Assembly (NCBI GenBank): GCA_043803945.1
Contig: JAZDJN010000101.1
Coordinates: 1-64,000 of the forward strand
Direction: 5' to 3'
DNA length: 64,000 bases
Source: a bacterium
GTDB taxonomy: Bacteria > Bacteroidota > Ignavibacteria > UBA10030
Part shown: positions 3,531 to 64,000 of the stretch, one piece after another
How positions within the stretch are numbered: the first letter of the stretch is position 1
How the letters are laid out: the number at the start of each line of letters is the position of its first letter
Program-made: the position numbers and the translations under genes
The notes under the pieces: model-generated
Databases searched by the model: none
The model's input: only the letters and a program-made list of their open reading frames with translations
What the model was told of the DNA's origin: nothing

Positions 3531-3690
3531 TAAAGTAGAAAGTTTAAGGTTACAGGTTTAAGGTTACAGGTTTAAGGTTACAGGTTTAAGGTTACAGGTT
3601 TAAGGTTTAAGGTTTATGGATATATACAGTTTACAGCTGACAGATTACAGATAACAGACTACAGACAGCAGACTACAGATGACCGAATAT
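3531..3690. repeat. Period-7 repeat spacer (AGGTTTA/AGGTTAC then ACAGA-based heptamers)
   Basis: Tandem heptamers; homologous tract at 4498-4630 and related tract at 6335-6430. Confidence 0.85.
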
Positions 3691-10272: not shown

Positions 10273-10478
10273 GTCTCATGAAAAAAGAATATAATTTCTC
10301 AAAGGGAATTCGTGGAAAGTTTTTTCGACCTCATGTCCGATTGAACCTGCCGATATACCTTGATGATGATGTTGCTCATTTTATTAAAGATTTCGCAAAA
10401 CGAAAAAAAATTGATCCCCAGACTATGGTCAACAAGCTCTTGCGAAGCAACAAAGAGATCATTCAGGCAATTCAATAG
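10269..10478 (+). CDS. BrnA-like antitoxin
   Basis: KEYNFSKGIRGKF..IYLDDDV..QTMVN; overlaps the BrnT stop. Confidence 0.8.
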   Translation: MSLMKKEYNFSKGIRGKFFRPHVRLNLPIYLDDDVAHFIKDFAKRKKIDPQTMVNKLLRSNKEIIQAIQ

Positions 10479-11252
10479 GTTTCTCACAATGAATTGATGA
10501 TTCGCTAGCAGCTGATGACGGCGTACCATTAAGGCAAATAATGATAAAAACCGCAATCGATTGGGATTAGTTTAGAATTATTATAGTCCATTCGCTCAAT
10601 CCAATATTCTCACGTTCCCAAATTCCAATATTCTACCATTCTCTCGTTCCAACATTCTTTCATTCCCACATTCTCCCGCAGAGTGAGCGGCAAGGAAATT
10701 CGGAATGGAAAATATGATTTCACCTTGTGGATCCCCCCCGAAAAAAAACATCCCGATATAAAGCATCCCGATATAAAGCATCGGGACAAGTCGGGACAAG
10801 TCGGGGCAAGCCAACAGAAACACTCGATAAAATACATGGGGGCTAAACGTACTGGGAACACTGAGGAGTTTTCAGCGAGGCTTCTCTCTCACTTCCCTCT
10901 CTCGTCCGCGAGAGAGGGAAGTGCGCTCTCTATGCGACAGGGTGAGAGGCAAGGAAATGCGGAAGTATGGAAATATGAGAATAAGGGAATAGGAAAATGT
11001 GGGAATTGTTATTTGAGATTTGTGTTTTTGTCAGCTTTCAGTCGCCGCCGCTCATCTTCTCTCTTTTCTCATCTTTCATCTCACATATTGTTATAGGTCG
11101 GGAGCTGGAGCTCCTCGCCACGGGCCCAACTGCGTTCGCCTTCGGCCTGCCCCGTCTCACGGGGCGAACTTCCGCCAAAAAGATGGCGGACAGGTCGTCG
11201 GGCAAGCGAGTCTAGCGACCTCCCAGAGTAAAACCTCCAAGCGTGAAGAACA

Positions 11253-11522
11253 CTAGCGGAACCAGAAGAAGAAGAAAACAACGACGCCAATGAAGAGGAA
11301 AAGCCAAAAAGGATGCTTGAGGAGAACAAATATACTGGAGAAGGTAAACTCGATGATTTTTGTCCCGCTGCCATGGAATTTTAATCCGCGCCAGCGGCAG
11401 TCGTGGCAGCGATAGTAGTGTGAAAGGAAAATGGATCTAATGAATCCCTCGAAAATATTATGATGATGAGATTTGTAGATTTGATCGCTGGAACATTTGG
11501 GACAGTACATAATAGGTATCAA
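11253..11522 (-). CDS. Small hypothetical Zn-ribbon membrane protein
   Basis: CPKC..CHDC pair and hydrophobic C-terminus. Confidence 0.5.
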   Translation of the reverse strand: MIPIMYCPKCSSDQIYKSHHHNIFEGFIRSIFLSHYYRCHDCRWRGLKFHGSGTKIIEFTFSSIFVLLKHPFWLFLFIGVVVFFFFWFR

Positions 11523-11852
11523 GTAAAAATGAAAAGGGAAAATACAAAATTAAAAAGAGTAAGAAGTAAAAATAAAAAGGAAAAAGGAAAAAAAATCTGT
11601 ATTCCAAATTCAACATTCAGAATTCTGAATTCCTTCCCCCCAATCTCCAATCGTCAATCGGAAATCGTCAATCTTCAAAGTCCTTCGATCTTCATTCGTC
11701 AATCGGAAATCGTCAATCTCTCCTTCTAACCCACTCTTCTCGTCTTACCCTCTTACACTCTCATCTCCTCATCACCCACTCTCCCATTCTCCACTTCTGC
11801 CACTCTCCTTGCCACACACTCGTACCTCTTACACTCTCATCTCTCCCCCTTT

Positions 11853-46774: not shown

Positions 46775-49700
46775 TTACTTCGCTTCTGAGAGGCCGAAGA
46801 GATCCTGGTCGAATTTGAAGCTGAGGGAGACGAATGGGCCTTTGCTCCAGAGGGAATAGTCAATAAGATCCTGCTCTTTATAGCCCTTGAAGTTGTAGCC
46901 GGTGGTGAGGCGCAGATTCTTTGCAACGGCGTAGCCAAGCTCTACACTGTACCCGTTCAGCAGGTCATTCGCTTCAATCTGATGCAAGCCGCGATATTCT
47001 GCTCCGACACTCCAGGCCTCGCTGATGTTATAGTTGGCGTGGATGAGTCCAAAGAATGTATGACTGCTCGAGGCAAACGTTGGCGATTCTTCATCTGAAA
47101 GTTTGAATGCCGTTTTAATTGCGAGTTCGAATCTCCGTACCGGTTCAGTATATGCATGGAGTGAAAAGATCGTGGCCGAATTATCAATGTAGGGCTGGAG
47201 GTAGCGATTTGCATCGCCCTTGATCTCAAACTTCGCGATGGCATTGAAATCGTTCGACTCGGTCGGGCGATAGGCAAGCCCGGTAATCAAATGAGAGAGT
47301 TTCCGGTAGCCTGAGGACTTCGTCGAGATGTCATTAGCCAGCCGATATTTAAAGATGAAACCAAAATCGTTATGGAAGCGGTAATCGCTTGCTATAAAAT
47401 AATTAATTTTTCGACTGATATAATCGTTAGCGAACTCAACCTTTGCACTTGCCTTCACTGCGGACTTCGGCAAATATTCCAAACCGCCGGAGATTGCATA
47501 ATGATCCTGCGTGCCGATCTCACCGACACGCTTAATAAAGCTCTTCGCTTGCTCGAAACTTGCATTGCCGGAAAGGTCATCGGTGATTTTCACGGTATTC
47601 CTCAAACCAATGCTTCCCATATTGCGCTCGCCGGAGATCAAATTCCCGATCTCATATTTTGCAAAAACCTCTGTACCCTGGAATACTGTCGATTTAATAT
47701 TAACACCGGTCAGAGAGCCGCCGCCTTCAACAAATTTATGCTGGCCGGCGATGGAAATCGATTGAATCGGTCTGTACTCCGCGATGACTGACGTGCCGTT
47801 GGGCCGTGCAAGATCCTGTTCCGATGCCAGGTTTCGTTCATGCTCGAGGCCAACACTGAAGCGGTTGGAAATCTGGAATGCGGAAGTCAGCGCTGCGAGC
47901 GAAGAGTGCGTTGCATCTTTCACTGTCGTCGAGTCAAGTGTCTTCGATTGGAGATCCTCAAAGCGGAACTTCCCCGTCCACCAGTCTGTCACCTTTGCCT
48001 CGAATGCCCCGAGCAGAGAGGTCCACTCCATCTTGCCCATAGGAAGATTTTGCGAAGCTTGATAATATTCCGTATGGATCTTGGTACCTTTGGAGATCTC
48101 GTAGGCACCCGTCAGGCCATATTTTTGAGAACCGAGTTCACGCCGTCCACCCGACTGGGTAATATTAAAGAATCCCACATCGACATTGCGATAGTACCCT
48201 TTAAGATTCAATCCTGTCGCGAGCATGGCATTCGATTCAACCTTATAGGCAATCCCGCTGCCATTGATGTTTGATGACTGGCCGAACTCGCTGAGAATGG
48301 AAAACTGGTCGTTGACCTGCAGTTTTGCATCAACTCCGAAGAGATAATAGTTCTTGGGTTCCTGTTGTTCTGTGATGCCGGTGAGTCCGACGTGGATACT
48401 CTTCCCAAAATTTCGTTCAACCCGGCCGCCGGCAACATAGGAGCTTGCACCGTAGGTTTTCGCTTCGAAATGCACAACGATAAAGATGGGATTACCGGCA
48501 ACATCGATGGCAGGCATCGGCTGTTTGAAGAAGAGCGAACCCTGTTCATAGTCGATGTCATAATCCTGGAATCGTGTCATCAGATCCCGCCTGATGAGAA
48601 CCTCGGAGTGGAACCGGTCGCGTGTCTCAATCGTCACCTGCTCGGAGCCGGGAGTGATGGTGGTGTATCCAAGGAAATAGAAGCCGGAAATCCCTTCCCC
48701 CCTCTTCTCGACCTGAACCTGCTTACGATCCGTGAGAGATCCGAAGCCACCGACCTTCCACTCATCATCCTGTAGGTTTGCTTTCACACCATTCAGGGTT
48801 CTGTTATAAGCGGTAAATTCCTGTTTCGTGAGATCAGAGGTAAAGTCACCCAGGTGGATGTAGCTCATGTTCTTTTCGATCTTCGCGAAGAAGTTCCGAT
48901 TCGTCTGTGCATCGTAGAAAAGCATGCTATTATCGCCATAGATCGTATAGAGATAATCGGGATCGACCTGGCGGAAGAACTTCGAATTATCCCGACGATC
49001 GGTGTCCACTGACAACTGAAGCAGATAACCATCGCCGACGGTTCCACGGGCGTAGGCTGCCAGCCGTCCATGACGATTGAACTTCTCCGGGTAGGCATCG
49101 AACGGTGTTACACCGGTCTTGTCACCTTTGGCCTCGTAGTATCCTCCCGTGCCGGTGGCAAGACCAACAAGTGAAAATTGCTCTATCGGCGTTGTCAAAA
49201 GCAGATCTGAGCTTGCTTCTAAGTCGGAATATTTTGCTCTAAACACGATCATCCGGGGTGATGATCCCGCTTGAAACTCAAAGTGTGCTTCCCCTTTGAC
49301 CAAATGCAACTGCAATCCTGGAGCATTAGGATCAAGATCCTTCGCAATAAGGATTCCACCGCTGTCCGCAGCCAATGTGACATTGATATCCCGATCGATT
49401 TGAGCATTCCACCTATCATACATCAGCACAAGTCCATTGATTTTCGATTTTCCATCTGCACTTATGCTATTTTTTTCGAATTGGATTTGAAGCTCGACCG
49501 GTGAACCAAAGATGTGAATGTTTCGAATTTGAGATGCTACGTATTGACCAGTCCCTTCATAAAGCTTCAGTTCATATTGGACGGGACCTTCAGGAACGGT
49601 AACACCGATGAACTCTAACGCGCCATCAATTCTCACCTCAGACTTTTGTACGATTTTACCGTTGACCAAAAGAGAGGCAAAATGCCCAATAGGAGCGGTT

Positions 49701-49879
49701 GCTATGACAGCTTGACTTCGAACATCACTTTTCAAACTATCTGGCGGATACGTGATAACGAATTGACTAAACGTCATAGGAGCGATTGTACACAGCGCAA
49801 CCAGGACAAAGAGAATTCTTACAACATCTCTTTGTCTGCTGGTGACCCAATTGCTATATGTATGGCTATGCGCTTGCAC
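46775..49879 (-). CDS. Large outer-membrane beta-barrel protein with N-terminal Ig-like domains
   Basis: Signal peptide; ADGKS Ig segment; YTIYGDNS, YNRTLNG, DYDIDYEQG motifs; many amphipathic strands; C-terminal VSLSFKF. Confidence 0.75.
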   Translation of the reverse strand: MQAHSHTYSNWVTSRQRDVVRILFVLVALCTIAPMTFSQFVITYPPDSLKSDVRSQAVIATAPIGHFASLLVNGKIVQKSEVRIDGALEFIGVTVPEGPVQYELKLYEGTGQYVASQIRNIHIFGSPVELQIQFEKNSISADGKSKINGLVLMYDRWNAQIDRDINVTLAADSGGILIAKDLDPNAPGLQLHLVKGEAHFEFQAGSSPRMIVFRAKYSDLEASSDLLLTTPIEQFSLVGLATGTGGYYEAKGDKTGVTPFDAYPEKFNRHGRLAAYARGTVGDGYLLQLSVDTDRRDNSKFFRQVDPDYLYTIYGDNSMLFYDAQTNRNFFAKIEKNMSYIHLGDFTSDLTKQEFTAYNRTLNGVKANLQDDEWKVGGFGSLTDRKQVQVEKRGEGISGFYFLGYTTITPGSEQVTIETRDRFHSEVLIRRDLMTRFQDYDIDYEQGSLFFKQPMPAIDVAGNPIFIVVHFEAKTYGASSYVAGGRVERNFGKSIHVGLTGITEQQEPKNYYLFGVDAKLQVNDQFSILSEFGQSSNINGSGIAYKVESNAMLATGLNLKGYYRNVDVGFFNITQSGGRRELGSQKYGLTGAYEISKGTKIHTEYYQASQNLPMGKMEWTSLLGAFEAKVTDWWTGKFRFEDLQSKTLDSTTVKDATHSSLAALTSAFQISNRFSVGLEHERNLASEQDLARPNGTSVIAEYRPIQSISIAGQHKFVEGGGSLTGVNIKSTVFQGTEVFAKYEIGNLISGERNMGSIGLRNTVKITDDLSGNASFEQAKSFIKRVGEIGTQDHYAISGGLEYLPKSAVKASAKVEFANDYISRKINYFIASDYRFHNDFGFIFKYRLANDISTKSSGYRKLSHLITGLAYRPTESNDFNAIAKFEIKGDANRYLQPYIDNSATIFSLHAYTEPVRRFELAIKTAFKLSDEESPTFASSSHTFFGLIHANYNISEAWSVGAEYRGLHQIEANDLLNGYSVELGYAVAKNLRLTTGYNFKGYKEQDLIDYSLWSKGPFVSLSFKFDQDLFGLSEAK

Positions 49880-49887
49880 GTTTGCTA

Positions 49888-52800
49888 TTATTGCGTCTTT
49901 ACCTGGAGCATGAATGGTTGTGCATCTTCCTGCCGCTTCTCGCCGGTTTTCTGCTGCCGCTGAATTGTCATTCGACTGATGAGTGAACCTTTGGCTGCTA
50001 CTTCATCTGTCACTTCTACTTCAAAGAGCAGGACGGTCGTTTCTTCGCTGCCACACTGAATCGTCAACGTGTTGCCGACTGTCGTAACATCGGCTACACC
50101 CTTCAGTTTATAAATCGAATTCGGCACCAACTGCAATCCCTTTGCCAGCGAATCGACGACAACGGTCTGCTCAGCCATTGTGGCTGCGGAGCGATTCAAT
50201 TCGAGATGCATAAAGAGCCGCTGGCCTTTGCTCACCGTCATGGTGGAATCAAACTGATCACGTCCGGCCTTCGGTACCAATCGCCGGCTTGCCACACCGG
50301 TCGAATCGATGCCACCCTCGGCAAACACACCGTTGACAAAAATATTTCGGAGAATTCTCATCTCGACCCGACGATTGCTCTGACGGCCAACCGGTGTGGA
50401 GTTTGCTGCCACCGGCCGCTTCGAACCAAATCCCATAGGCTTGATCTTTTCTGGATTAATGCCGTAGGAGGAGCGGAGGTACTTTGCAACCGTATGGGCA
50501 CGGGCCATTGAAAGACTCATCGCTGCACTTTCGCCCTTCTCTCCAGCTTCTCGGGAATCTGTGTGGCCTTCAATAATCACCTGCGCTTTTCGATCCTGCG
50601 TGAGCATAATGCTCGCAATCTTTAATGCGGTAATATTCGTATCGATGATCGCTGACTGAGCTTCATTGAATAATATTCCGGAGAGCACATAGTTCGAATT
50701 TCTGCTTCGAATGCCGATCGCGGTTTCCGTGCGGGTTACAAGTGTATCGGTTATCGTCACAGCGTCGTTGCCTATCCAGTAGGTCACCTTCTGGGTTCTG
50801 GATTTCAATGTCACACGATCGCTCCTCGGTGTCACGACATTCAGTTTATACTCCAGGGTCTTCTTGAAGCTGCGTCCGATCCCTTCGATGCTCCATACTA
50901 CTGATTGATCCTGGACGGAAGCCTTGAGAGGAGTACCATTGAGTTTGCCGCTTCCCTCGACGAACTGATATCCCTTGTCCAACTGATCCTGAATCTCGAT
51001 CTTCGAGATCGATGCCGATCCTCGATAGGAAATTGGAAGTTGAATGGTAACAGAGAGCGTATCGAGGTTTTGCACTCGTTCCTGCTCCGTTTGAATATCG
51101 AATTCCACACGACGATTATTCGCACGTCCCTGCACAGTTGTGTTCGAAGCAATGGGCCGTGTCTCGCCGTAGCCGCGTGTCGTGATTTGCTCCGGAGTGC
51201 AGCCCAACACATTGACCAGATAATTCTTCGCAGCGTTCGCACGTCCATCCGAAAGCTCGAAGTTGTTCTTGAATTCCTTTGTGTTGATCGGCGACCAATC
51301 CGTATGCCCGGAGATGACGACACGCGTCCTGGCATTTTCCCTTAGCTGCTTGCCGAGTTGATTTAAGAGCGAGAATGCTGCTGGCTTCAGCACGGCTTTC
51401 CCGACTTCGAAATTCAATCCTGAGAGTGTCAGATCCGGCAGCCGTTCTTCCTGCGTGAAGACCAGGTTCTGTGGCTCGGCAATTCTTCTGATGGTTAACT
51501 CACCGGATGCCGCCACAGTCTTTCTCAAGAAGACCGGTTCCCACACAATTGTCGGTGTCAGGTCTTCGAGATAGAAATCGGCTCGGGCAATACCGCTGGC
51601 AGGCAGCTTCACAAACCGCGACGCCGGATCGCCGGCAAATTCATTGTAGCCGACAATCAGGTTCGAGAACTTTGGCAATGACGCTTTTCGCACCATAATC
51701 ACATGCTCACCCGGCTCGATATCCGGAATAGAGTACTTGCCATCATCGCCGGTAACGATCCGGATACCGCCCTCGGTAATAAGCTCCACTCCCTTGATAC
51801 CAACTTCGCCGAAATCCTGATGGGCATTCCGATTGCGGTCGAAGAACACCTTGCCGATGATGACGCCGCGCTCGGTAAAGAGCCCCCGTTGAATTTGGAC
51901 TTGTTCCACCGCCGAGGCGCTGGAGACAATCACCTTATTCAGAGCATTCGCAAATGCAGTTGCAGTATTGATACCATCGCTCTCAATACCACCGGCACCA
52001 ACCACAAGGCGATACATAAATTCTATTGTTTCATTTGGTGCAATTGAATCAGCGACCAGGAATCGTAATTCACGAGTGCCGGTCGGCTCCGGAAGTTTCA
52101 CAGTGCCGCGGTACGCTGAGTTTTCAACGTAACGGAACCCAAACGGAATACGATCGGCGACCTGAACATCCGTTAAGGTAAGGCCGGTCGTTCTGTTGGT
52201 GACTCTGATCTGATAGGTTACGATATCACCGACTTCAACCATTTTCTTCAGTGCGATCTTCACAATCTGGAGTTCCGGCACCAGGACTTTTGTATTCACG
52301 ATTGAAGTCATCGGGTACGCTTCATTCGATGTCACCACTGCTCTGTTGACAAGGGTCAGCAATCCTTTGAGTGAATCGGCAAACCGCACCGTGACAGATG
52401 CTGAGAACTTGTTCGCGGCACCGCCGACAGAGTCAAGTTTTCCAATACTCCAGACCACCCGATGATTTAAGGAATCGTAGCCGCCGCCATTCGTCGCAGA
52501 GATGAACCGCATACGGCGGTCGAGCGAGTCGACGACAATCGTATTCGTTGTCGCTATTCTTCCGATGTTTGTCAGCGACACGCTATAGGTGACAGTGTCT
52601 TTTGCATTTGCTTCCGCCGGTCCATTCTTCACGAACGCAACTTCTGGATTCAGAATGATCGGTATGTTCACATTGAGAACATAGTGACCGCTATCGGGTA
52701 ATGAGGTTCGAACAGTACCTTCAAGCAAGCCATCGTGGATACTGATTTCATATTTCCCTTGAGGCAAATCACCGAAGAGATACATCCCCAATGTATCGGT

Positions 52801-55800: not shown

Positions 55801-58800
55801 CAGCACCTGCTTCCTGAAGGCCATTCCCCTCTTCGCACTCACGGTGATGGTTGTTGTTGCAGATTTCATGCCCGTCTCGTTCGGTTTTGCATACACGGTA
55901 TTGAGTATGAGCTGTCCATCGTTCAGGTCAGGTGACACACGTGCGATAATACTTATCGAGGATGTTGCACCGACTGCCAGGTTATCAATGACAAACTGTT
56001 GCAATTCACTTGCATCGGATGTTTTCTTGGAATTTGCAGAGAACGTTGATGCTCGTGAATTCAGCAGCATCGATGAGAGCGAATCAACCACAACAATATT
56101 CGTCAATGGGACATTGCCGGTATTGATGACATTGATCGAAAAGAATACTTCTTCGCCTGCCTTCGGATTCGAGGGGGTAGCGACTTTGGTGATCGTGAAT
56201 GATGGCTGTGCCGCAATGGTCCGGACGGCAGCGCTGGAGGAAACAGGTGTTACCTGCTGCGCTCCGGCGTAGGCGGTATTGCGAACTATCTGGCCTGATG
56301 CAACTGACAATGAGAGGTTCGCTGTCACAACGATTGTATCTTGTTTACCGGCCTGCAGCGAATCGAGTTGATACGTCACGACATTGCCATTCAACATCAC
56401 CTTCTGAGAAGCCTTTACTGATGTCAGGAGTGCGTTCAGCGTATCGGAAACGATCACTCCCTTTGCGGTGACGGTTCCGGTATTTGCCACGATGACGCGG
56501 AATGTCACCGTACCACCGCCGATGGTAGTATCCGGCGACACCGTTTTCTGAATTGAAAGTTTTGGCGTTGGCGGCGGAACCACAATCCGCGTCGCAACCT
56601 TCACGGTGTTACTAGGGATCATACCAGACAATCCTGAAGCACCGGCATAGGCAACGTTCGTGATCGTCTTACCGGAAGTATTCTCTGTCAGCACACGAAC
56701 TGTTACACTCACCGAATCGGACTGATTGATGCGCAGCGTATCTCTGGTATAGAGGATCAGATTGCCGGCAATCCGTGCATTATTGCTGACGAACACCGGA
56801 GCAATAAGCGCAGCGTTCAATGTATCCGCCAGAGAGATCTTGGTCAGCGGAATATTTCCGATATTCTCCACCCGTATCAGGTAGCTGTAGGTGTCGCTGG
56901 CATTTACCGTGTCTATCGATGCTTGTTTCGTCAAGCGCATCTGAGTAACCGGAACAAACGGCTTCACCTGGAGCGATACTTTCGATTGGATAGGCGAGGT
57001 GTCTGATGACGAACCATAGGCTGTGTTCTCAACCACCTCAGTATTCGTTATCGATAAGGAGACTGAAGCCTGAATCTTTAATGTATCGATCGAACCGATC
57101 GGCAGGTTTGAGATTGTATACTTTACAAGCGCTGCTGTTCCTGCCGGAGTGACGGTACCTTTTGCACTCGTAACAGTTGTGAATTTTGAAGAAACCGTAT
57201 CGACGATGACGACATTGCTCAGCGGGGCTGAACCGATATTTTGAATGGCAATCCTAAACTCAACGTTCTCACCACCGACGGCAGACGACTTCGACACGAG
57301 CTTCTTGATCGATAAAAGCGGTTTCGGTGGAGGTGGTGTCGTACCGACAGTAATTTGGGCTGATGCCGTCTGTGTAAGACCGGTATTGTCTTTCGCACTT
57401 GCCATGTTTGTAATCGAAGTTTCTGATGGTGTACCTGCCTGAATCCTTGCACTCACTTGTAGTGTTGTCGTTGCTCCGACGCCGAGTGAGGAGACTGTCC
57501 ATGTTGCCTTGTTTCCAGAGACCACCGCTCCCACCGCATTTTGCAGGATGAGCTGAGCCGGCAGCGAATCGACGACAGTCAGTTGACTCAGGTTGGCCGT
57601 TCCATTGTTTCGAAGAATCAGATTGTACGTTACATCGTCGCCCGGCAACACGGTCGAAGACGATGCGACCTTATTCAAAGTGAAGGAGCGGAATGGCAGT
57701 GTGATTGTAACGATGCTCGCCGACGAACTCACAGTGGTGTTATTGACATTCTTCACACTGACCGTATTCGTTATCGATGTTCCCGGTGTAACGGTCGAAA
57801 GAATCGAAGCTTTCAGTGTCAATGTCTGCACTGCTCCGACGGCCATGCTTCCAAGATTCCACGTCGCCGTGTTTCCGGAGATTGTCGAACCGGAAGCACT
57901 CACAAGCTGCATTCCGGATGGCACTGCATCGGTTACCACAACCTGGATGACCGGAACTGAACCGGTATTTCTCACAACGATTGAATAGGTAATCGTATCA
58001 CCGGCAACTGGATTGGTGACTGAAGAGGTCTTGCTTACGGCAAAGACCGGCGAGGGCGGAGTCTGTGTGATAACGGTTGCCGACGAAGAAACCGATGTGT
58101 TGTTGACATCCGTCGCTGTTGCTGTATTTGTAATGGAAGTACCACCTGCGACTGTCGAGAGCACGGATGCCCGCAAGGTAAGTGTTGAACCAACTCCGAT
58201 GGCAAGTGTACCAACATTCCATGTCACTGTAGAACCGGCAATCGTTGCACCGGAAGCCGCTATGAGTTGCAGTTGCGCCGGCACCACATCAACGATTGTC
58301 AATTGATTCACAGCCAGCGTACCGGTGTTCTTTGCTGTGATCGTATAGGTCAGTGTATCACCAGGCAATGGATTACTGATGGATGCCGTCTTGCTCAACG
58401 TGAAGGCGGTGCTTCCCGGAGTGATCGTAATGATCGAAGCAGAAGCGCTCACGGTTGTGCCGGCAGCATCGGTTGCATTGGCGGTATTCTGGATCGTGGT
58501 GTTGCCGGCAACGCTCGTAAGCACCTTTGCATTGAGCTGCAGCGAAATTGTCGTGCCCACGGCAACAGTACCGAGATTCCATGTCGCTGTGTTACCTGCA
58601 ATCGTTGCACCGGCTGCTGAGACTAATTGCAGTTGAGCAGGCAATGCATCGACCACGTTCAATTGAATGATAGCTACTGATCCGGTGTTCTTCACTGTAA
58701 TCGAATACAGCACGGTGTCGCCGGGCAGCGGATTGTTCACCGAAGCGGTCTTGTTGATCGTAAACACGGGTGACGGCGGTGTCTGTGTCGTCACACTTGC

Positions 58801-61800
58801 TGAGGAGGAGACTGAAATATTATTGACATCACTCGCTGTTGCAGTATTGGTGATCGTCTTTCCGCCGGCTACAGAAGAAATTACTGTCGCTTGCACGGTC
58901 TGCGTTGTTGTTGCTCCCACAGCCAGCGTGCCCAGATTCCACGTTGCCGTATTGCCGGAGATTGTCGCACCGGTGGCACTGGTAAGTTGCAGCTCGGCGG
59001 GCAACGCATCGACGAGCGTGAGCTGATTGACAGAAACCGAGCCGGTATTTTTTATCGTAATAGTGTAAGTCAACGCATCACCGGGCAGCGGATTATTCAC
59101 TGAGGCCGTCTTGCTGATGGTAAAGACTGGTGATGGCGGTGTCTGCGTAATGGCACTGGCAGAGGATGAGACCGTTGTGTTGTTGACATCGGTTGCCGTT
59201 GCCGTGTTCAGAATGGTTGTGCCGCCTGCGATCGAAGCGAGCACGGTTGCCTGGATGCTCAATGTTGATGTTGCCCCGACAGCGAGTGTACCGAGATTCC
59301 ATGTGGCAATACTGCCGGAGATTGTCGCACCAGCAGCAGTCTGGAGCTGCATCGTTGCAGGAATTGTATCGACCACTGTCAGTTGATTGACCGGGACCGA
59401 GCCGGTGTTCTTCACAACGATCGTGTAGACCACTGCATCACCCGGCATTGGATTATTCACAGAGACTGTCTTGCTTACCGTAAAGACCGGTGCGGGCGGC
59501 GTCTGTGTTGTCACATCTGCAGAAGAAGAGACCGTTGTGTTGTTGATATCTGTCGCTGTTGCCGTATTCGTGATGGTAATTCCACCTGCGACCGAGGAAA
59601 GTACTTTTGCCTCGATGGTCAATGTCGATGTTGCGCCAACTGCCAGAGTACCGAGGTTCCACGTTGCCGTAGTACCGGATACTGTTGCTCCTGCTGCGCT
59701 GATCATTTGCAAACCGCTCGGCAGTGCATCAACAATCGTAAGCTGATTGACCGGAACGGAGCCGGTATTCTTCGTTACAATTGTATAGACGATTGTATCG
59801 CCGAGCATCGGATTGCTTACAGAGACAGTCTTACTCACCGTAAAGACCGGTAAGGGTGGTGTCTGGGTCGTCAGGCTCGCAGAAGAAGAGACGGAAACAT
59901 TATTGACATCCGTCGCTGTGGCAGTGTTTGTGATCGTTGTTCCACCCGCAACGGAAGAGAGAACTGCCGCTTGAATTGCGAATGACCTGGAAGCTCCTAC
60001 GGCGAGAGTATCGATATTCCATGCAGCTTTATTGCCGGCAATTGTCGCACCCGAAGCGCTTACCAGTTGAAGTTCTACAGGCAACAGATCGATAACGGCA
60101 ACTTGAATAACCGGATTCGTACCTGTGTTTCGGACAACGATGGCGTAGGTCACTGTATCGCCGGGCAATGGATTGTTGATGGAGACCGTCTTACTGACCG
60201 TAAAGGTTGTCGTTCCTGCAGTAACCGTTGTAATATCGACTGAAGCATTAAGCGATGTGTTATTGACATCAGTCGCTGATGCGGTGTTCGTTATGGTTGT
60301 ACCGCCAGCCACCGATGAAAGAACGGTTGCCTGAACGGTTACGGTCGATGTGGCGCCAACTGCTAACGTGCCAATGTTCCATGTTGCAGTATTACCGGAA
60401 ACCGTTGCACCGAAAGCACTCGTGAGCGATAACTGAGCTGGCAGGCTATCGACGACCGTTAATTGATTCACTGCCACCGAGCCGGTGTTCTTCACCGTAA
60501 TCGTATAGGCGATAGCATCGCCGGGGAGCGGGTTGTTGACAGATGCTGTTTTGCTGATTGTAAAGAGCGGTGATGCCGGTGTTGCAGTGGAGATACTCGT
60601 CGAGGATGAAACAGAAATATTATTGTCATCGGTAGCTGTGGCCGTATTGGTGATTATCGTGCCACCGGCAACAGAAGTGAGCACTGAAGCCTGTATTGTG
60701 AGAGTTGATGTTGCACCAACCGCCAATGTACCAAGATTCCACGTTGCTGTATTGCCGGTAATCGTTGCGCCCGCGGCGCTCGTGAGTGAAAACTGAGCTG
60801 GCACTACATCGACAACCGTCAATTGATTGACTGCGACCGTGCCGGTATTCTTCACCGTAATGGTGAACGTTACAGCATCGCCGGGCAGCGGATTATTGAC
60901 GGAAGCAGTTTTACTGATTGTAAAGACCGGTGTCGGTGGTGCGCTGACCGTTACCGCTGCAGAGGAAGAGATGTTTAAGTTCGTGCTATCTTTTCCCGTT
61001 GCCGTGTTCGTAATTGTTGTTCCTGCTGCAACCGAGGATAAGACTGTTGCCTGTACGGAAAGCGTCGTTGTTGCACCAACCGCCAATGTGCCAACATTCC
61101 ATGTTGCCGTATTTCCGCTGATGGTTGCGCCTGCAGCGCTGGTTAACTGCAACTGTGCCGGCAACGGATCTGAGACAACGAGCTGAGTAACTTCAATCGG
61201 GCCGGTGTTTTTTACTGCGATTGTATAGGTTAACGCATCACCCGGCATCGGATTATTGACGGATGCCGTCTTGCTCACCGAGAATACTGGTACTAATGGT
61301 GTTAGCGCCGAGAAGGTCGCCAACGCTGAATACGTTGTTCCAGCATTATCTGTCACCTGCACTGAATTTGATACGATAGTACCAACAGCAATTCCACCCT
61401 TCATCCGGGCAGTGAGTGAGTAGGTACTTGTTGCATTCTGAGCAAGCGATGCTACCGACCAGGTTACCGTATTGCCGGAAATTGTTGCACCCGGAGCGCT
61501 CACTACAACCAGTTCGACTGGCACGGTATCAACGACCGGTACATTACTCTCGACACCATTACCGCCATTCTTCACGGTGATCGTGTATGTGATGAAGTCA
61601 TTCGTTGTTGCGGTGCTCATCGATGACTGTTTCTGCACCGAAAGATTATGGACAGTGGCAACGAAGACGGACGCAATATTGCTCTGCGCGGTTAAATTTA
61701 CACCGCTTATAGTTGAGTACTGGACAGTACAGATGTTATCGATCTGCGTACCAGCGGCCGTTTGTGAAAAGACAACATTACTGCTCACCATGCACAGAAG

Positions 61801-61842
61801 CAGAAGAACCGGCAACAGGATATGTTTATTGATTTTTGTCAT
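49888..61842 (-). CDS. Giant secreted DUF11-repeat protein with SdrD-B-like and two OmpA-like domains (3984 aa)
   Basis: Signal peptide; about 24 K..GD..Y.I...N.G..D..P..W..N repeats; GKVFFDRN..GDDGKYS; two GHTD..LS..RA..NRRVE domains. Confidence 0.9.
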   Translation of the reverse strand: MTKINKHILLPVLLLLCMVSSNVVFSQTAAGTQIDNICTVQYSTISGVNLTAQSNIASVFVATVHNLSVQKQSSMSTATTNDFITYTITVKNGGNGVESNVPVVDTVPVELVVVSAPGATISGNTVTWSVASLAQNATSTYSLTARMKGGIAVGTIVSNSVQVTDNAGTTYSALATFSALTPLVPVFSVSKTASVNNPMPGDALTYTIAVKNTGPIEVTQLVVSDPLPAQLQLTSAAGATISGNTATWNVGTLAVGATTTLSVQATVLSSVAAGTTITNTATGKDSTNLNISSSAAVTVSAPPTPVFTISKTASVNNPLPGDAVTFTITVKNTGTVAVNQLTVVDVVPAQFSLTSAAGATITGNTATWNLGTLAVGATSTLTIQASVLTSVAGGTIITNTATATDDNNISVSSSTSISTATPASPLFTISKTASVNNPLPGDAIAYTITVKNTGSVAVNQLTVVDSLPAQLSLTSAFGATVSGNTATWNIGTLAVGATSTVTVQATVLSSVAGGTTITNTASATDVNNTSLNASVDITTVTAGTTTFTVSKTVSINNPLPGDTVTYAIVVRNTGTNPVIQVAVIDLLPVELQLVSASGATIAGNKAAWNIDTLAVGASRSFAIQAAVLSSVAGGTTITNTATATDVNNVSVSSSASLTTQTPPLPVFTVSKTVSVSNPMLGDTIVYTIVTKNTGSVPVNQLTIVDALPSGLQMISAAGATVSGTTATWNLGTLAVGATSTLTIEAKVLSSVAGGITITNTATATDINNTTVSSSADVTTQTPPAPVFTVSKTVSVNNPMPGDAVVYTIVVKNTGSVPVNQLTVVDTIPATMQLQTAAGATISGSIATWNLGTLAVGATSTLSIQATVLASIAGGTTILNTATATDVNNTTVSSSASAITQTPPSPVFTISKTASVNNPLPGDALTYTITIKNTGSVSVNQLTLVDALPAELQLTSATGATISGNTATWNLGTLAVGATTTQTVQATVISSVAGGKTITNTATASDVNNISVSSSASVTTQTPPSPVFTINKTASVNNPLPGDTVLYSITVKNTGSVAIIQLNVVDALPAQLQLVSAAGATIAGNTATWNLGTVAVGTTISLQLNAKVLTSVAGNTTIQNTANATDAAGTTVSASASIITITPGSTAFTLSKTASISNPLPGDTLTYTITAKNTGTLAVNQLTIVDVVPAQLQLIAASGATIAGSTVTWNVGTLAIGVGSTLTLRASVLSTVAGGTSITNTATATDVNNTSVSSSATVITQTPPSPVFAVSKTSSVTNPVAGDTITYSIVVRNTGSVPVIQVVVTDAVPSGMQLVSASGSTISGNTATWNLGSMAVGAVQTLTLKASILSTVTPGTSITNTVSVKNVNNTTVSSSASIVTITLPFRSFTLNKVASSSTVLPGDDVTYNLILRNNGTANLSQLTVVDSLPAQLILQNAVGAVVSGNKATWTVSSLGVGATTTLQVSARIQAGTPSETSITNMASAKDNTGLTQTASAQITVGTTPPPPKPLLSIKKLVSKSSAVGGENVEFRIAIQNIGSAPLSNVVIVDTVSSKFTTVTSAKGTVTPAGTAALVKYTISNLPIGSIDTLKIQASVSLSITNTEVVENTAYGSSSDTSPIQSKVSLQVKPFVPVTQMRLTKQASIDTVNASDTYSYLIRVENIGNIPLTKISLADTLNAALIAPVFVSNNARIAGNLILYTRDTLRINQSDSVSVTVRVLTENTSGKTITNVAYAGASGLSGMIPSNTVKVATRIVVPPPTPKLSIQKTVSPDTTIGGGTVTFRVIVANTGTVTAKGVIVSDTLNALLTSVKASQKVMLNGNVVTYQLDSLQAGKQDTIVVTANLSLSVASGQIVRNTAYAGAQQVTPVSSSAAVRTIAAQPSFTITKVATPSNPKAGEEVFFSINVINTGNVPLTNIVVVDSLSSMLLNSRASTFSANSKKTSDASELQQFVIDNLAVGATSSISIIARVSPDLNDGQLILNTVYAKPNETGMKSATTTITVSAKRGMAFRKQVLPVEARKGDTVTYTLKVQNTGELPLATVRVSDVLPVGLAFLSATGNPQVSGANISWIKDTVRVGADETYLILAVVTTSENTTLVNNATAGASLIQGQSAQASLLIKNVQYKLELTKKASQDTVDIGGLYFYTIRLTNKGWAPLTGISVLDTLPSQYIDLLSDAGTAGQREQIVTYSKELLNPGESFQFEIPVRVLPTVKENQTIINDVWASANELVAPSTDNGTSLAGYIWYEAEAIVYIRGTSTGSGTHPQIALRKSVSKDSVDLSGTVLYTIILENTGDLTLKNITLVDTLSSKLRSVAVFPGAQVNNNIITYLRDSLRVGQRDTLFIQAQVDSSVTANQQVSNTAFAGARELGGEWKRSTAVFVTKKQGGGVVLVPQLSISKSVSLDTVELGGTVLYTIILENTGDLTLKNVELVDTLSSKLRSVAVFPGAQVDNNIITYRRDSLKVGQRDTLFIQAQVDSSVAANQQVSNTAYAGARELGSELKRSTAIFVTKKQGGGVVLVPQLAISKSVSLDTVELGGTLRYTIVLHNTGEVKLTNISFVDTLAAEILGVSVSQNAALANNIVTYQLDSLSVGKRDTVFIDARLKQDAPVNTRILNTVTAQAKELPGEVRRAQAIFITRKPTGGSGSGDDLEVWKYAEREVVTVGENANYRIIFQNKSDHTIYNVSILDTLKAPLVPVSVSNNAALANNIIAARRDSMLSLQRDTIFVVATVPSDRPHNEQIPNIAYGYIDTTRADTGRAVIWTRAIVVDKSCAIHLRVTPLLVIGNGIQAASIEAFVADTLGNPKPDGSIVHFKTDIGFYSNGLDSMAVPTKNGYAIDSLRALISSNSIVTAKAVVSVSESDLCNASSSIDIVFYPGAIAGEIMDNETEQPVEGALVEVFTSTGQFVGSQITLQDGHYMIPVPKTDNYRVVITVLDRFGVPVPVRSIVRVEVPGTGGHPPVLNRSFISGKVYFIVSGQPVAGQYIKVYLHRIVDQRPAKVPSALEYSTLLDSTITDTLGMYLFGDLPQGKYEISIHDGLLEGTVRTSLPDSGHYVLNVNIPIILNPEVAFVKNGPAEANAKDTVTYSVSLTNIGRIATTNTIVVDSLDRRMRFISATNGGGYDSLNHRVVWSIGKLDSVGGAANKFSASVTVRFADSLKGLLTLVNRAVVTSNEAYPMTSIVNTKVLVPELQIVKIALKKMVEVGDIVTYQIRVTNRTTGLTLTDVQVADRIPFGFRYVENSAYRGTVKLPEPTGTRELRFLVADSIAPNETIEFMYRLVVGAGGIESDGINTATAFANALNKVIVSSASAVEQVQIQRGLFTERGVIIGKVFFDRNRNAHQDFGEVGIKGVELITEGGIRIVTGDDGKYSIPDIEPGEHVIMVRKASLPKFSNLIVGYNEFAGDPASRFVKLPASGIARADFYLEDLTPTIVWEPVFLRKTVAASGELTIRRIAEPQNLVFTQEERLPDLTLSGLNFEVGKAVLKPAAFSLLNQLGKQLRENARTRVVISGHTDWSPINTKEFKNNFELSDGRANAAKNYLVNVLGCTPEQITTRGYGETRPIASNTTVQGRANNRRVEFDIQTEQERVQNLDTLSVTIQLPISYRGSASISKIEIQDQLDKGYQFVEGSGKLNGTPLKASVQDQSVVWSIEGIGRSFKKTLEYKLNVVTPRSDRVTLKSRTQKVTYWIGNDAVTITDTLVTRTETAIGIRSRNSNYVLSGILFNEAQSAIIDTNITALKIASIMLTQDRKAQVIIEGHTDSREAGEKGESAAMSLSMARAHTVAKYLRSSYGINPEKIKPMGFGSKRPVAANSTPVGRQSNRRVEMRILRNIFVNGVFAEGGIDSTGVASRRLVPKAGRDQFDSTMTVSKGQRLFMHLELNRSAATMAEQTVVVDSLAKGLQLVPNSIYKLKGVADVTTVGNTLTIQCGSEETTVLLFEVEVTDEVAAKGSLISRMTIQRQQKTGEKRQEDAQPFMLQVKTQ
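58011..61300 (-). repeat. Intragenic tandem repeat, 360-nt (120-aa) period, about 10 units
   Basis: Equivalent (V/I)..NP codons recur at 58011, 58371, 58731 ... 61251, exactly 360 nt apart. Confidence 0.9.
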
Positions 61843-61855
61843 TTATTTCTAGGCC

Positions 61856-61882
61856 CGGAGTCGGGCAGCAAGCCCGGCTCCG
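61856..61882. promoter_or_regulatory. Strong intergenic hairpin without U-tract
   Basis: CGGAGTCGGGC-AGCAA-GCCCGGCTCCG between the 582-aa and 3984-aa genes. Confidence 0.65.
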
Positions 61883-61896
61883 AACATTACAAATAA

Positions 61897-63645
61897 CTAC
61901 TTCACAGTTACTTGAAACTTAAACCATACTTGTGTGCTAGCTGTCGTTGGGCCAGCTAGAGGGTTTTTTAGTGTAACCACAAGGTTTGGAGTGCTCCAAG
62001 TTACATCCGCATCAGCATTCGTTGTGGCTCCAGCAACAAACGCTGGGAAGGATACCCAGGCTGAGCCGCCATCTATTGAACTCTGAAAAGTTCCTGATGT
62101 TGTAATGAAATCAACGTACCCCGTTGGTACTGCGTCATTGATCGCTACTACGTATGCAGGCGCATGTCCAGTGTTTTGAATTTTGATTGTATATGTAATA
62201 ACATCACCAGGTAATGGATTTGCTGGTGAAGCAATCTTTCCTACTACGAGCAGCGCCTTTAACGGTGTGGTAACACCTGTTACCGCCTGTGTCTGCGTTC
62301 CCGTTTGGGCTGTACCAGTCCAGGTAATAGTCACAGGTGTAAAATCTGTCGCACCGAATGGGATGTATGGAGCTACCCAAAACTCAACCGTACCACCACC
62401 TGAAGCCGGAACAGTGACAGTTACATTACCACTGTTATTGATCCAGGTGAACTTAGCGGCATTCGTTGAATCCAGGGTTGTTTGGGCACCTACAGGAGAC
62501 CAGTTCGACATCCACCAAGTGCCATCGTTTGAAATGACGACGTTGGTTGCTGCACTACGGTTGTTTGAGAGCACAACCCGATACACAACACCTGCCGAAA
62601 CCTCATTGGAAGCGCTCGCTGTTCCAGCGAGTGATCCCTGGAGAGTACCGCTATAGTACGCCTGTATTTGCATCGTAAATCCACGCGATGTCCACGCGGC
62701 GGTGGCGTCAACAGTAGGAGATTCAGCTCTAGTATGTTGAGTGCTCTGATTTGAATATGTTGCTGCAGTAGTGTAGTTAACTGCCGATCCATCACCAGCA
62801 GAGACCGTACCGGTAAATGTTAATGTTACCGAAGCACCCACTCCTAAACTTGGAATAGTCCAGGTTCCACCACTATAAGTTCCATTTATTGAGCTAACTG
62901 AGGTAAGACCTGTAACCGTTAAAGGAATAGTAGTATTTCCATACGTGGCTTTGTCGCCATTATTCGTGTAGGTTACTGTATAGGTGATCTGTTCACCAGG
63001 AACCGGATTTGCCTCTGAGGTTGTCTGCCCAGTGACCGCGAGAATTGCCCGATCAATTGTAATATGATCGGTTCGTGGAGCTGGATTATTACCATCACCA
63101 GTCTTTGCAGTAAAGTCGATTTGATTATCATCACTAATAGTAACACCAGCAGGAACAGTAACGACGGCCCAGATCTTTGTCGTGACATCAGAAGTTTGCT
63201 GATTTCCCCCCACTGTCTGTGCAATTGCTACAACATTGCCACCACCACCTAATAGTGGCTCCGTACCAGCAAATGGAACTACTCCGTTAGCATAGTAGTA
63301 GGTTATCGTCCAAGGACTACCCATTGATTGCACGGCTGTGATGGCGATATTATCATCATCATTCCCAGTATTCGTGACATTGATTGGGATGGCGATGGTC
63401 TCATTGCCGTATGATGAATATGTAGCACCGGCATCGACTGAGACTCCGTATTTATGACCAACGGTTACGGAAATTGAAGCGACCTCGTTGGCGTAACTAT
63501 TGAGTCCTGTAACATCTTTATAAGAAACCGTAGCTGTATTCATAATCACGGTTCCAGCCTTAGTTCCAGATGCTACAAGTGTATGTGTTGAGAATACGAG
63601 CAGTAAGGCAAGTATTCCTAACAGCAGAACATTTGAGTGTTTCAT
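61897..63645 (-). CDS. Secreted Ig/DUF11 protein, putative fibre subunit (582 aa from ATG 63645)
   Basis: GGAG + MKHSNVLLLG signal peptide; N-terminal AGTVIMNTATVSY; C-terminal DUF11 domain ending at FKFQVTVK; ORF is open upstream to 63843. Confidence 0.8.
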   Translation of the reverse strand: MKHSNVLLLGILALLLVFSTHTLVASGTKAGTVIMNTATVSYKDVTGLNSYANEVASISVTVGHKYGVSVDAGATYSSYGNETIAIPINVTNTGNDDDNIAITAVQSMGSPWTITYYYANGVVPFAGTEPLLGGGGNVVAIAQTVGGNQQTSDVTTKIWAVVTVPAGVTISDDNQIDFTAKTGDGNNPAPRTDHITIDRAILAVTGQTTSEANPVPGEQITYTVTYTNNGDKATYGNTTIPLTVTGLTSVSSINGTYSGGTWTIPSLGVGASVTLTFTGTVSAGDGSAVNYTTAATYSNQSTQHTRAESPTVDATAAWTSRGFTMQIQAYYSGTLQGSLAGTASASNEVSAGVVYRVVLSNNRSAATNVVISNDGTWWMSNWSPVGAQTTLDSTNAAKFTWINNSGNVTVTVPASGGGTVEFWVAPYIPFGATDFTPVTITWTGTAQTGTQTQAVTGVTTPLKALLVVGKIASPANPLPGDVITYTIKIQNTGHAPAYVVAINDAVPTGYVDFITTSGTFQSSIDGGSAWVSFPAFVAGATTNADADVTWSTPNLVVTLKNPLAGPTTASTQVWFKFQVTVK

Positions 63646-63893
63646 AGTGAACTCCATTTGTGAAAAAGTTGAATTATGATTTATTGTTGTACTGTAATTC
63701 TGTTGAACATTGTGGTGCTTGTTACTCTCAATTCTATCCCTGATCGGTGGTGAAGAATCAGTGAATAGAGCTATGAACATTGGACCTGGAGATCGAGCTC
63801 TGTTGATCGGTGATCGCCTCGCTTGCATGATGATTGGTTCCATAATTGTTCTCCTTATATTTTTGTGTGATTAAGAAAAAGGATTACTGGTTC

Positions 63894-64000
63894 TCAGAAA
63901 ATTACTTTATACCGCACGGTTCGTTCTTCCCCGGGGTTGATGATCGATTTAAAAGCCCATTGAATTTCTTTCACTGGCTCACGAGCAGGAGGGGCTGCTG
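63894..64000 (-). CDS. 3' end of a DUF11-like protein (partial, continues beyond the window)
   Basis: Hand translation ..PVKEIQWAFKSIINPGEERTVRYKVIF*, matching the W....PGE...V.Y.V strand pair of DUF11. Confidence 0.6.
   Translation of the reverse strand, partial: AAPPAREPVKEIQWAFKSIINPGEERTVRYKVIF

Follow-up and report, generated by a model that had tools for sequence, protein, structure and literature searches.

How might a Gram-negative bacterium assemble a surface fibre from separately encoded proteins, each of which starts or stops in the middle of a domain? The question is raised by a 64,000-nucleotide (nt) stretch of DNA, here called the window, which comes from a member of the Bacteroidota (Ignavibacteria; UBA10030) and represents the first 64 kb of the 76.8-kb contig JAZDJN010000101.1 (assembly GCA_043803945.1). 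Its minus strand carries three complete genes, encoding a protein of 582 amino acids (aa) that we call the subunit, a giant 3984-aa protein that we call the base, and a 1034-aa outer-membrane barrel; two further genes of the same operon, for a 376-aa protein and a 1803-aa protein (the putative tip), lie upstream (table 1). We propose, with a probability of about 0.6, that these products form a modular fibre consisting of a tip, the 582-aa subunit and an OmpA-anchored base, in which a hairpin from one module completes an unfinished domain of another in trans, a Lys-Asn isopeptide bond locks the joint, and the giant barrel serves for export and anchoring.

The building block shared by these proteins is the DUF11 domain (PF01345), which Pfam detects in 24 stretches of the base (E 2.3e-300), in 11 stretches of the 1803-aa protein, in the subunit (E 3.9e-17) and in the 376-aa protein (E 3e-8). 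The base begins with a signal peptide and an orphan hairpin, followed by approximately 22-24 DUF11/CLIPPER domains, other Ig-like domains, two OmpA domains and a C-terminal domain. The OmpA domains (PF00691, two stretches with E 1.3e-34 and 118.9 bits, the curated cut-off being 27.2) support an earlier suggestion, made in an annotation of the DNA without database searches (the first-pass annotation), that this protein is anchored in the cell wall. The isopeptide-forming fimbrial domain TIGR04226 matches six stretches of the base, and a match of Peptidase_M73 to the same protein stays below threshold, with 0 stretches passing, and carries no weight. Ten of the DUF11 repeats have a length of exactly 120 aa. 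A profile built from twelve of the repeats matches the solved CLIPPER/DUF11 domain 9IFR with an E-value of 0.0053, such that K8 (first strand), D42 and N96 (penultimate strand) of the profile align column on column with the Lys, Asp and Asn of 9IFR; the profile was needed for this, as a single repeat compared with the sequences in the PDB gave no match. In 9IFR the three residues (Lys715-Asp748-Asn806) form an intramolecular isopeptide bond that has been seen crystallographically (PMC12617251), and it is because of the homology to this solved domain that we infer an isopeptide bond here; a self-made covalent bond at the joints of the fibre is probable. The first-pass annotation had read a Lys/Asp/Asn triad in every full repeat of the base. 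This holds for 19 of the 22 DUF11 domains detected, the other three having the Asp and the Asn with the Lys column unaligned, whereas the CnaB-like fold assumed there has to be replaced by a CnaA-like one (PMC12617251).

The ends of the proteins depart from this pattern. While the internal repeats carry an intact intramolecular triad, the domains at the C-termini of the 582-aa and 1803-aa proteins keep the Lys and the Asp and have no Asn hairpin. When aligned to a hidden Markov model (HMM) built from the 120-aa repeat of the base itself, the terminal domains stop early, at column 76 in the 582-aa protein (whose acceptor domain aligns only to columns 4-76), at column 82 in the 1803-aa protein and at column 51 in the 376-aa protein. 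The missing part turns up at the opposite end of other chains. Residues 23-52 of the base align, weakly, to columns 83-110 (independent E-value, i-E, 0.52), and residues 21-53 of the subunit to columns 81-113 (i-E 0.02). In profile-profile comparison the hairpins of 27 bases fall on repeat columns 88-101 and those of 33 subunits on columns 89-106 (P of 2.4e-4 and 7.9e-4, respectively), Asn on Asn. There are two donors (the 582-aa protein and the base) and three acceptors (the 1803-aa, 376-aa and 582-aa proteins). The base and the tips have no complementary end in their own chain, the 1803-aa protein being devoid of a donor hairpin and ending in an acceptor with the Lys and the Asp. Homologues of the subunit share a leader, a hairpin of the form AAGTPAGTxIxNxA...Y.D..G, and an end at F.V.I[NK]. 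The HMM and profile alignments agree with the motifs quoted in the first-pass annotation and with its reading of the subunit as split, with an orphan hairpin in front and a last domain that stops before the hairpin; they likewise uphold the orphan hairpin at the start of the base.

A scan restricted to one genome per species recovered at least 565 loci encoding the barrel, of which 80 were fetched and searched with custom-built hairpin and truncated-end HMMs at their own thresholds, the resulting counts being based on related sequences. The candidate split-DUF11 fibre and barrel operon appears, by these searches, to occur in many environmental Gram-negative bacteria. The taxa named by the sources of the 80 loci comprise Ignavibacteriota/Bacteroidota, Marinimicrobia/Fidelibacterota, Krumholzibacteriota, Latescibacterota, Lentisphaerota, Desulfuromonadales and Brocadiia, and 98 homologues of similar length to the barrel were found, nearly all of them unnamed. 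Within the phylum of the window the barrel is patchy (31 of 201 genomes sampled, 11 of 110 genera). Across the 80 loci, 85 open reading frames (ORFs) finish exactly at the pre-hairpin strand, and 89 of the 97 matches to the hairpin HMM (E <= 0.01) lie directly behind a hydrophobic leader. Synteny could be scored in 44 loci, in which the sequence upstream of the barrel measured 6 kb or more, the other 36 being too short. An ORF with an orphan hairpin is present in 42 of the 44, and a truncated-end ORF as well in 38, which agrees with the expectation of the first-pass annotation that the barrel co-occurs with split-DUF11 genes. A single ORF combines both ends in 32 of these loci, and a base protein with a hairpin is encoded in 33. 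Generic DUF11-rich proteins taken as a control had an N-terminal hairpin in 5 of 150 cases and a truncated end in 3 of 150, two of which are true relatives of the subunit. By these figures the split ends are more than a product of chance. The usual gene order is an acceptor-only tip, a protein of ~370 aa, a ~600-aa protein with both ends, the giant with hairpin and OmpA, and the barrel.

The residues of the triad are conserved on both sides of the proposed joint. The Asn of the base hairpin is invariant (27/27) and has no Lys to pair with in its own chain, because the first full domain behind it possesses its own K45, D79 and N133 (with the Lys at least 90% conserved). Lys and Asp of the subunit acceptor (K445 and D479 in the mature protein) are invariant in 33 of 33 sequences, and the Asn of the subunit hairpin is at least 90% conserved (alignment A3). 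A search with A3 against 1.84 billion representatives returned mostly giant generic DUF11 proteins, with two of the 150 matches listed being subunit-like, and added no power for covariation analysis. Coding the 49 proteins with both ends by the residues at the hairpin Asn, the acceptor Lys and the acceptor Asp, in this order, we found N/K/D in 33, N/-/N (Asn for Asp, Lys column unaligned) in seven and S/I/A, the loss of all three, in three; another three (in loci L014, L047 and L035) have lost the hairpin Asn only and keep the acceptor Lys and Asp, and the remaining three show other combinations or an unaligned Lys column. Among the acceptor-only proteins, 19 have K/D and eight K/E. The orphan hairpin and the truncated end recur in a related family of ~880-980 aa, the acceptor of which has an extra Cys-containing loop; Asn and Asp are present in 52/52 of its members, and although the HMM left the Lys column unaligned in 48, a first-strand Lys is visible in all ten sequences printed. 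Members of this ~900-aa family are source-named Polaromonas sp., Glaciimonas soli and Thauera sinica and are possible culturable models.

The joint between subunit and base was also modelled as a complex of the subunit acceptor (mature residues 425-557) and the N-terminus of the base (mature residues 1-164), each with its own, custom-made alignment. The interface score (ipSAE) was 0.87 in three runs, against 0.00 for the best control, a mark of 0.87 being reached by 58 of 80 solved complexes and by 2 of 110 mismatched pairs. At least 98% of contacts were shared between the runs, and the predicted local distance difference test (pLDDT) of the partner was 91 or more. On the acceptor side, the modelled interface is made up of the strands bearing the Lys (441-454) and the Asp (470-482) and of the last two residues of the chain; on the partner side it involves residues 1-36. 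Since residue 479 of the acceptor touches residue 12 of the partner and the register is antiparallel, Asn10 would lie diagonal to Asp479. The model supports binding, and does not show it. For the completion of a split DUF11 domain in trans by an N-terminal hairpin, as first proposed in the first-pass annotation, it speaks together with the invariance of the triad residues. Of the two things that this annotation had expected of a multimer prediction, the placement of the hairpin in the acceptor was obtained, and a Lys-Asn pair at the joint was not among the contact pairs listed.

Put together, these observations allow the following scheme. A connecting module would end in a CLIPPER/DUF11 Ig-like domain short of its last two strands, and the next, more cell-proximal module would supply the missing strands as a hairpin at its mature N-terminus. 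Docking would restore the Lys/Asp/Asn triad of an intact domain, and therefore a Lys-Asn isopeptide bond would be expected to form by itself and lock the joint. A donor-less tip (the 1803-aa protein or, alternatively, the 376-aa protein) would be followed by one or more 582-aa subunits and finally by the 3984-aa base, the long stalk of which would end in the two OmpA domains gripping peptidoglycan, while the 1034-aa barrel would work with the base as conduit and anchor. The polarity of assembly would be that of chaperone-usher pili, with the tip coming first and growth taking place at the base.

The barrel is predicted by AlphaFold2 (AF2; mean pLDDT 77.5) to have, behind a signal peptide, two Ig-like domains (approximately residues 41-230) and about 45 beta-strands, 32 of which are long and consecutive (residues 464-1024). 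No family was matched in Pfam, NCBIfam or a PDB profile search, and matches in the Atlas were to unnamed clusters only. Foldseek retrieved for it only generic large barrels (LptD, TonB-dependent receptors, SlpA, MtrB, FimD and SprA) at a template modelling (TM) score of up to 0.22; the N-terminal Ig-like part resembles D00-D0 of intimin (rank 42, target-normalized TM score, TMt, 0.44). Judging from the model, this would be a very large outer-membrane barrel of no known family. Its connection with the base is apparent from gene fusions, in which a region similar to base residues ~3190-3583 (DUF11-like and SdrD_B-like) stands upstream of a barrel homologue in seven of seven fused proteins. The OmpA domain is included in five of them, whereas in L061 and L081 the similarity to the giant stops around residue 3430, with no OmpA domain being detected; the barrel homologue starts at a position corresponding to barrel residues 45-196, after a gap of 57-234 residues. 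Such fusions tie the base and the barrel into one unit. Because the two are fused in other lineages, it is likely that the stalk passes through the barrel while the OmpA domains stay on the peptidoglycan. We infer from this that the barrel would be the translocon and that the fibre would reach the cell surface by this route. Base-barrel fusions occur in L061, L069, L074, L080, L081, L085 and L086, and further at L091:8738-15919 and L092:8445-15623, the proteins measuring 1800-2400 aa; in a related fused family, encountered in many complete genomes, the order is a hairpin, an Ig-like region, the barrel and then OmpA.

The 376-aa protein belongs to a conserved family of ~360-385 aa, the gene of which lies between those for the tip and the subunit, and a single-domain form of ~160 aa exists in other phyla. 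The first-pass annotation had noted, from the part of this gene included in the window, that it ends without the hairpin. The truncation is indeed there, with the correction that in the terminal DUF11 domain the isopeptide Lys is missing and the Asp is replaced by Asn. Both forms of the family keep the truncated domain, in which Asn or Gly takes the place of the Asp and the isopeptide column contains no Lys. Because the catalytic Asp and the isopeptide Lys are absent, this family should represent an acceptor to which a hairpin binds but is not ligated. Conceivable roles are those of an assembly factor, a cap or an alternative head. The N-terminal 250 aa of the 376-aa protein belong to no family that we could detect, and an Atlas search gave no usable match.

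Several points weigh against the proposed covalent fibre. The matches of the orphan hairpins to the repeat HMM are weak and would not stand alone, and as the sequences are related, the counts overstate their independence. The two halves of a split domain tend to pass complex modelling of this kind and, because the intact domain has already been solved, the good score may reflect mere likeness to it; moreover, the Lys-Asn pair is absent from the 25 contact pairs listed for the model. The confidence of the subunit modelled as a monomer fits docking of its hairpin on its own acceptor. The barrel has no relationship to any known translocon that our searches would detect. Among the both-ended proteins, the three that have lost only the hairpin Asn do not fit a covalent chain of subunits, and the tip of L047 keeps a K/E acceptor with no Asn partner in the subunit. 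A second type of locus lacks the catalytic residues altogether, accounting for the seven N/-/N and the three S/I/A proteins. This second type, which looks like a non-covalent version of the same system, is represented by L025, L026, L029, L037, L039, L040, L058 and L067 (with the barrel at ~10001-13100 in loci with full flanks). It has a ~600-aa subunit gene directly before the barrel gene and no giant base, and genes for an acceptor-only protein of 2250-2770 aa, a ~365-aa protein and a ~550-aa subunit after it. The N-terminus of the barrel was considered as the hairpin donor in loci without a giant base and rejected, as none of the barrel N-termini printed has the motif.

The strongest rival explanation, to which we assign somewhat less than even odds, accepts the joints and denies the polymer: a single 582-aa adaptor would connect one tip with one base in a defined hetero-oligomer, that is, a three-piece fibrillar adhesin with exchangeable heads. 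It draws on L014, L047 and L035, where the subunit hairpin has no Asn while the Lys and Asp of the acceptor and the Asn in the hairpin of the next protein are kept; in L035 the acceptor of the tip has also lost its Lys and Asp, matching the Asn-less hairpin of the subunit. Two or three distinct subunit paralogues exist in some loci (L049 and L035), as in ordered tip fibrillae, and the base alone gives a stalk of 22-24 domains. On the other hand, donor and acceptor are united in the subunit, whose hairpin motif hardly differs from the one in the base, its sequence shows no bar to self-addition, and all three residues are kept in one chain in most of the both-ended proteins (33/49). Because the three exceptional loci lost the Asn of the subunit and retained the other residues, the conserved covalent joint would be that between base and subunit; the covalent partner of the acceptor would thus be at least the base hairpin, and covalent links between subunits appear not to be universal.

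A conserved RNA stem-loop bears on the same issue. The one located in the 54-nt gap between the subunit and base genes has a minimum free energy of -29.4 kcal/mol (z -4.5), with 0 of 200 shuffled sequences being as stable. Stem-loops with z <= -3 are found in 21 of 37 gaps after subunit genes, in 0/7 gaps after barrels, in 0/5 before subunits and in 8/34 other gaps, and five of these eight (L028, L030, L032, L033 and L038) likewise follow, judging by position, subunit genes that had not been flagged. A stabilizing or attenuating hairpin behind the gene for the major subunit is typical of pilus operons. Because it directly follows the subunit gene, the stem-loop suggests differential expression within the operon, with the subunit in excess over the base and the barrel; this speaks against the single adaptor and is consistent with homopolymerization. 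Whether the 582-aa subunit polymerizes is, in our estimate, an even bet.

The covalent fibre can be elaborated into a complete chaperone-free pilus pathway of diderms, a version that we regard as speculative and rather doubtful in its entirety. Modules exported by Sec would be ligated in the periplasm through a natural, SpyTag/SpyCatcher-like split CLIPPER domain and threaded tip-first through a barrel of a new family with ~32 or more strands, acting as usher and anchor; the 582-aa protein would make a covalent shaft, and the ~370-aa protein would be a hairpin-holding factor or a cap. The pathway would be spread over Ignavibacteriota/Bacteroidota, Marinimicrobia, Krumholzibacteriota, Latescibacterota and Proteobacteria.

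It is unlikely, in our view, that the hairpin of the 582-aa protein completes the C-terminal domain of its own chain, yielding a closed and in effect circularly permuted monomer outside any chain of modules. The AF2 model of the mature subunit as a monomer (mean pLDDT 72.5) has pLDDT values of 86-93 for the hairpin and 90-95 for the acceptor domain, and a predicted TM score (pTM) of 0.61 for a protein of four to five domains, values that fit such closure. Monomer predictions, however, tend to satisfy intermolecular couplings within one chain. Asn, Lys and Asp are co-retained or co-lost in one chain in 36 of 49 proteins, which fits such closure and homotypic completion in trans equally. Closure in cis is no option for the base, which has only a donor, or for the 1803-aa and 376-aa proteins, which have only an acceptor; three variants keep the Lys and Asp without an Asn of their own, and the base hairpin is confidently modelled into the subunit acceptor. 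A Foldseek search with the subunit model returned generic multi-Ig proteins only.

We consider it quite improbable that the N-terminal motif acts chiefly as a signal for targeting or secretion that the barrel would read, comparable to the TPS domain of two-partner secretion, with the truncated ends being ordinary variants and no chain existing between proteins. The position of the motif exactly at the mature N-terminus (89/97 matches) and its tight co-occurrence with the barrel are what such a signal would show, and the conserved N-terminal Ig-like domains of the barrel could bind a strand by beta-augmentation. Yet the tips encoded in the same operons lack the motif, which aligns to exactly the hairpin that the acceptors miss, Asn on Asn, while the Lys and Asp kept by the acceptors find no partner Asn within the same domain; the complex model is specific (controls 0.00). 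The two roles are also compatible with each other. An artefact of repeat register, in which the hairpin would belong to the following domain and nothing would be split, is very improbable indeed: although the register of a tandem array is ambiguous from sequence alone, Pfam DUF11, the 9IFR chain and the triad (and also a table in PMC12617251) place the Asn hairpin at the end of the domain, the base domain behind the hairpin has a full triad of its own, the subunit domain behind the hairpin has no Lys strand, and the model sets the hairpin in the domain of the other chain.

The preferred reading thus remains that of a fibre joined in trans, encoded by an operon whose features are listed in table 1. 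The operon is regarded as consisting of five genes (for the 1803-aa, 376-aa, 582-aa, 3984-aa and 1034-aa proteins) because of its flanks: genes for an alcohol dehydrogenase and methionine synthase, both housekeeping, follow downstream of the barrel gene, and a divergent gene for an OmpA/TSP3 protein adjoins the first gene of the operon upstream. The divergent gene (plus strand, contig positions 70923-72452; L010:9124-10653) encodes 509 aa, with a region resembling a small outer-membrane barrel at the N-terminus, an OmpA domain at the C-terminus and six calcium-binding repeats of the bacterial TSP3 type. All five products of the operon start with a Sec-type leader, as judged by eye. The giant gene lies 8 nt upstream of the barrel gene. 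The subunit ORF is also readable as 648 aa, a reading that crosses the 248-nt gap and has no signal peptide at its start, whereas the start at 63645 provides one and gives the 582-aa protein. This non-coding gap of 248 nt (63646-63893) precedes the subunit gene, the other gaps in the operon measuring 8-54 nt, and an internal promoter before the subunit gene is possible; a scan for sigma-70 promoters around this gene found 5 against 4.5 expected from shuffled sequences. Terminator-like sites in the same region numbered 4 against 2.0 in shuffles, with none in the gap between subunit and base, because the stem-loop there has no T-run. In the operon and its flanks, the region surveyed for them, there was no gene for a sortase or a chaperone and no LPXTG-type C-terminus.

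Table 1. Features of the operon on contig JAZDJN010000101.1 (contig and window numbering coincide).
Feature	Position	Strand	Basis or remark
1034-aa outer-membrane barrel protein	46775-49879	-	ORF
3984-aa base protein (giant)	49888-61842	-	ORF; Pfam, NCBIfam, repeat HMM
OmpA-like domain 2 of giant	50347-50622	-	~residues 3741-3832; position from NCBIfam MotY-type match
OmpA-like peptidoglycan-binding domain 1 of giant	51112-51411	-	residues 3478-3577; Pfam PF00691
Orphan donor hairpin of base	61657-61764	-	residues 27-62; Asn36 = N10 of mature protein; invariant Asn, modelled interface
RNA stem-loop between subunit stop codon and base start codon	61853-61885	-	
582-aa subunit, N-terminal donor hairpin and C-terminal truncated DUF11 acceptor	61897-63645	-	ORF
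Subunit acceptor domain	61900-62268	-	residues 460-582; Lys470 = K445, Asp504 = D479 of mature protein; stops before Asn hairpin
Orphan donor hairpin of subunit	63460-63570	-	residues 26-62; Asn36; motif conserved directly behind signal peptide
376-aa gene	63894-65024 (contig); in window only 3' end, 63894-64000	-	
1803-aa gene	65051-70462 (contig); upstream, outside window	-	

One groundwater metatranscriptome library contained contigs that match the barrel, giant and subunit genes of the window with 100% identity; two sister runs contained none. The longest, of 982 nt (62956-63935), extends from the end of the 376-aa gene across the 248-nt gap and through the 5' half of the subunit gene, and seven shorter ones lie between 48662 and 59779. 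These contigs indicate presence only and can neither rank the genes nor prove transcription, as carry-over of DNA is possible.

If the proposed scheme is true, a large group of environmental diderms uses a naturally split isopeptide domain to join adhesin modules from separate genes and exports them through an undescribed giant barrel, found at no fewer than 565 loci in species-representative genomes. This would add an assembly principle to the surface biology of Gram-negative bacteria, explain the partial first and last domains of many "DUF11 repeat proteins", and provide natural, orthogonal peptide-protein ligation pairs for protein engineering. A search of openly accessible full-text papers retrieved no account of this system; partial domains of this kind may be listed in the supplements of PMC12617251, which lay outside that search.

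Textbooks describe covalent pili as characteristic of Gram-positive bacteria, in which they depend on sortases, and to our knowledge the pili that Gram-negative bacteria build by strand complementation are non-covalent. Fibres formed by autocatalytic exchange and locking have so far been reported for a clostridial relative of TasA (PMC11580942), a Bacillus spore fibre (PMC13111695) and an archaeal thread (PMC9715654), and the relevant passage of a 2026 review lists only sortase pili for such intermolecular bonds (PMC13721041). Because exchange-and-lock fibres are known, as far as these sources go, only in Gram-positives and archaea, the diderm system would be a new form of them, differing also in its new barrel family. 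The nearest counterpart by domain content is the OmpA-anchored CLIPPER adhesin B9T28_05395 of Acinetobacter silvestris (9IFR), which has the same domain family and Lys-Asp-Asn triad, a distal N-terminus, a stalk of tandem CLIPPER domains and a C-terminal OmpA anchor, and which is reported to be a single chain with its own adhesive head and with all bonds intramolecular (PMC12617251). The system described here has, in contrast, a separate gene for the head, an orphan hairpin on the base, unfinished domains in the partners and a dedicated barrel gene.

In chaperone-usher pili (type 1, P), an incomplete Ig-like fold is completed by the N-terminal extension of the next subunit. The likeness extends to the N-terminal donor, the donor-less tip, the last subunit that ends the chain, the outer-membrane barrel encoded in the operon and, presumably, the tip-first polarity. 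Unlike in those pili, no PapD-like chaperone and no match to the usher family was found here by Pfam and NCBIfam in the operon and its flanks, the donor consists of two strands, a hairpin, instead of one, the joint is predicted to be covalent and the base would be tied to peptidoglycan; the barrel, with ~32 or more strands, is also much larger, and FimD is only a generic match to it (query-normalized TM score, TMq, 0.22).

The chemistry of the proposed joint has its closest parallel in BsaA, the clostridial fibre, where an N-terminal donor inserts into the sheet of the neighbouring subunit and Asn, an acidic residue and Lys form an intermolecular isopeptide bond without a sortase (PMC11580942). 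The insertion of a donor and the sharing of the triad across chains would be the same here, going by sequence and model, whereas the fold is the CnaA-like one of CLIPPER and not TasA-like; moreover, BsaA is a small subunit that forms homopolymers in a Gram-positive lacking an outer membrane and a barrel, and mutational evidence is reported for it. The thread of Sulfolobus acidocaldarius combines donor-strand complementation with a covalent isopeptide bond between subunits, which, in contrast to our proposal, connects the N-terminal amine with Asn57 of subunit n+2 in an unrelated fold, in an archaeon and with no barrel (PMC9715654), and A-ENA has an intermolecular autocatalytic isopeptide bond in an alpha-helical fibre (PMC13111695). 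As reported, none of the three splits a CnaA-like domain, none comes from a diderm and none has a barrel.

Sortase pili (RrgB and others) resemble the proposed fibre in being covalent and made of multi-domain pilins with internal isopeptide bonds, and TIGR04226 matches the repeats here. They differ in their sortase gene and LPXTG-type C-terminus, neither being present in the operon and flanks of the window, where the link would be autocatalytic, the host is a diderm and the C-termini end at the pre-hairpin strand. Type V pili (FimA/Mfa1) are made from lipoprotein precursors with a lipobox Cys by strand exchange that a protease triggers; the system is set apart from them because its 582-aa, 376-aa and giant proteins have signal peptides that, read directly, end in the Ala/Ser manner with no Cys at +1. 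The barrel differs from those of autotransporters and inverse autotransporters in having no family match in Pfam or NCBIfam, although the fused forms have the passenger-then-barrel order of an autotransporter and may work like one. Finally, the arrangement recalls SpyTag/SpyCatcher, in which a peptide contributing one residue completes a truncated Ig-like domain that holds the other two and ligation is spontaneous; that pair, however, was engineered from a CnaB domain (PMC6539128), whereas the split proposed here is natural, CnaA-like and would serve assembly.

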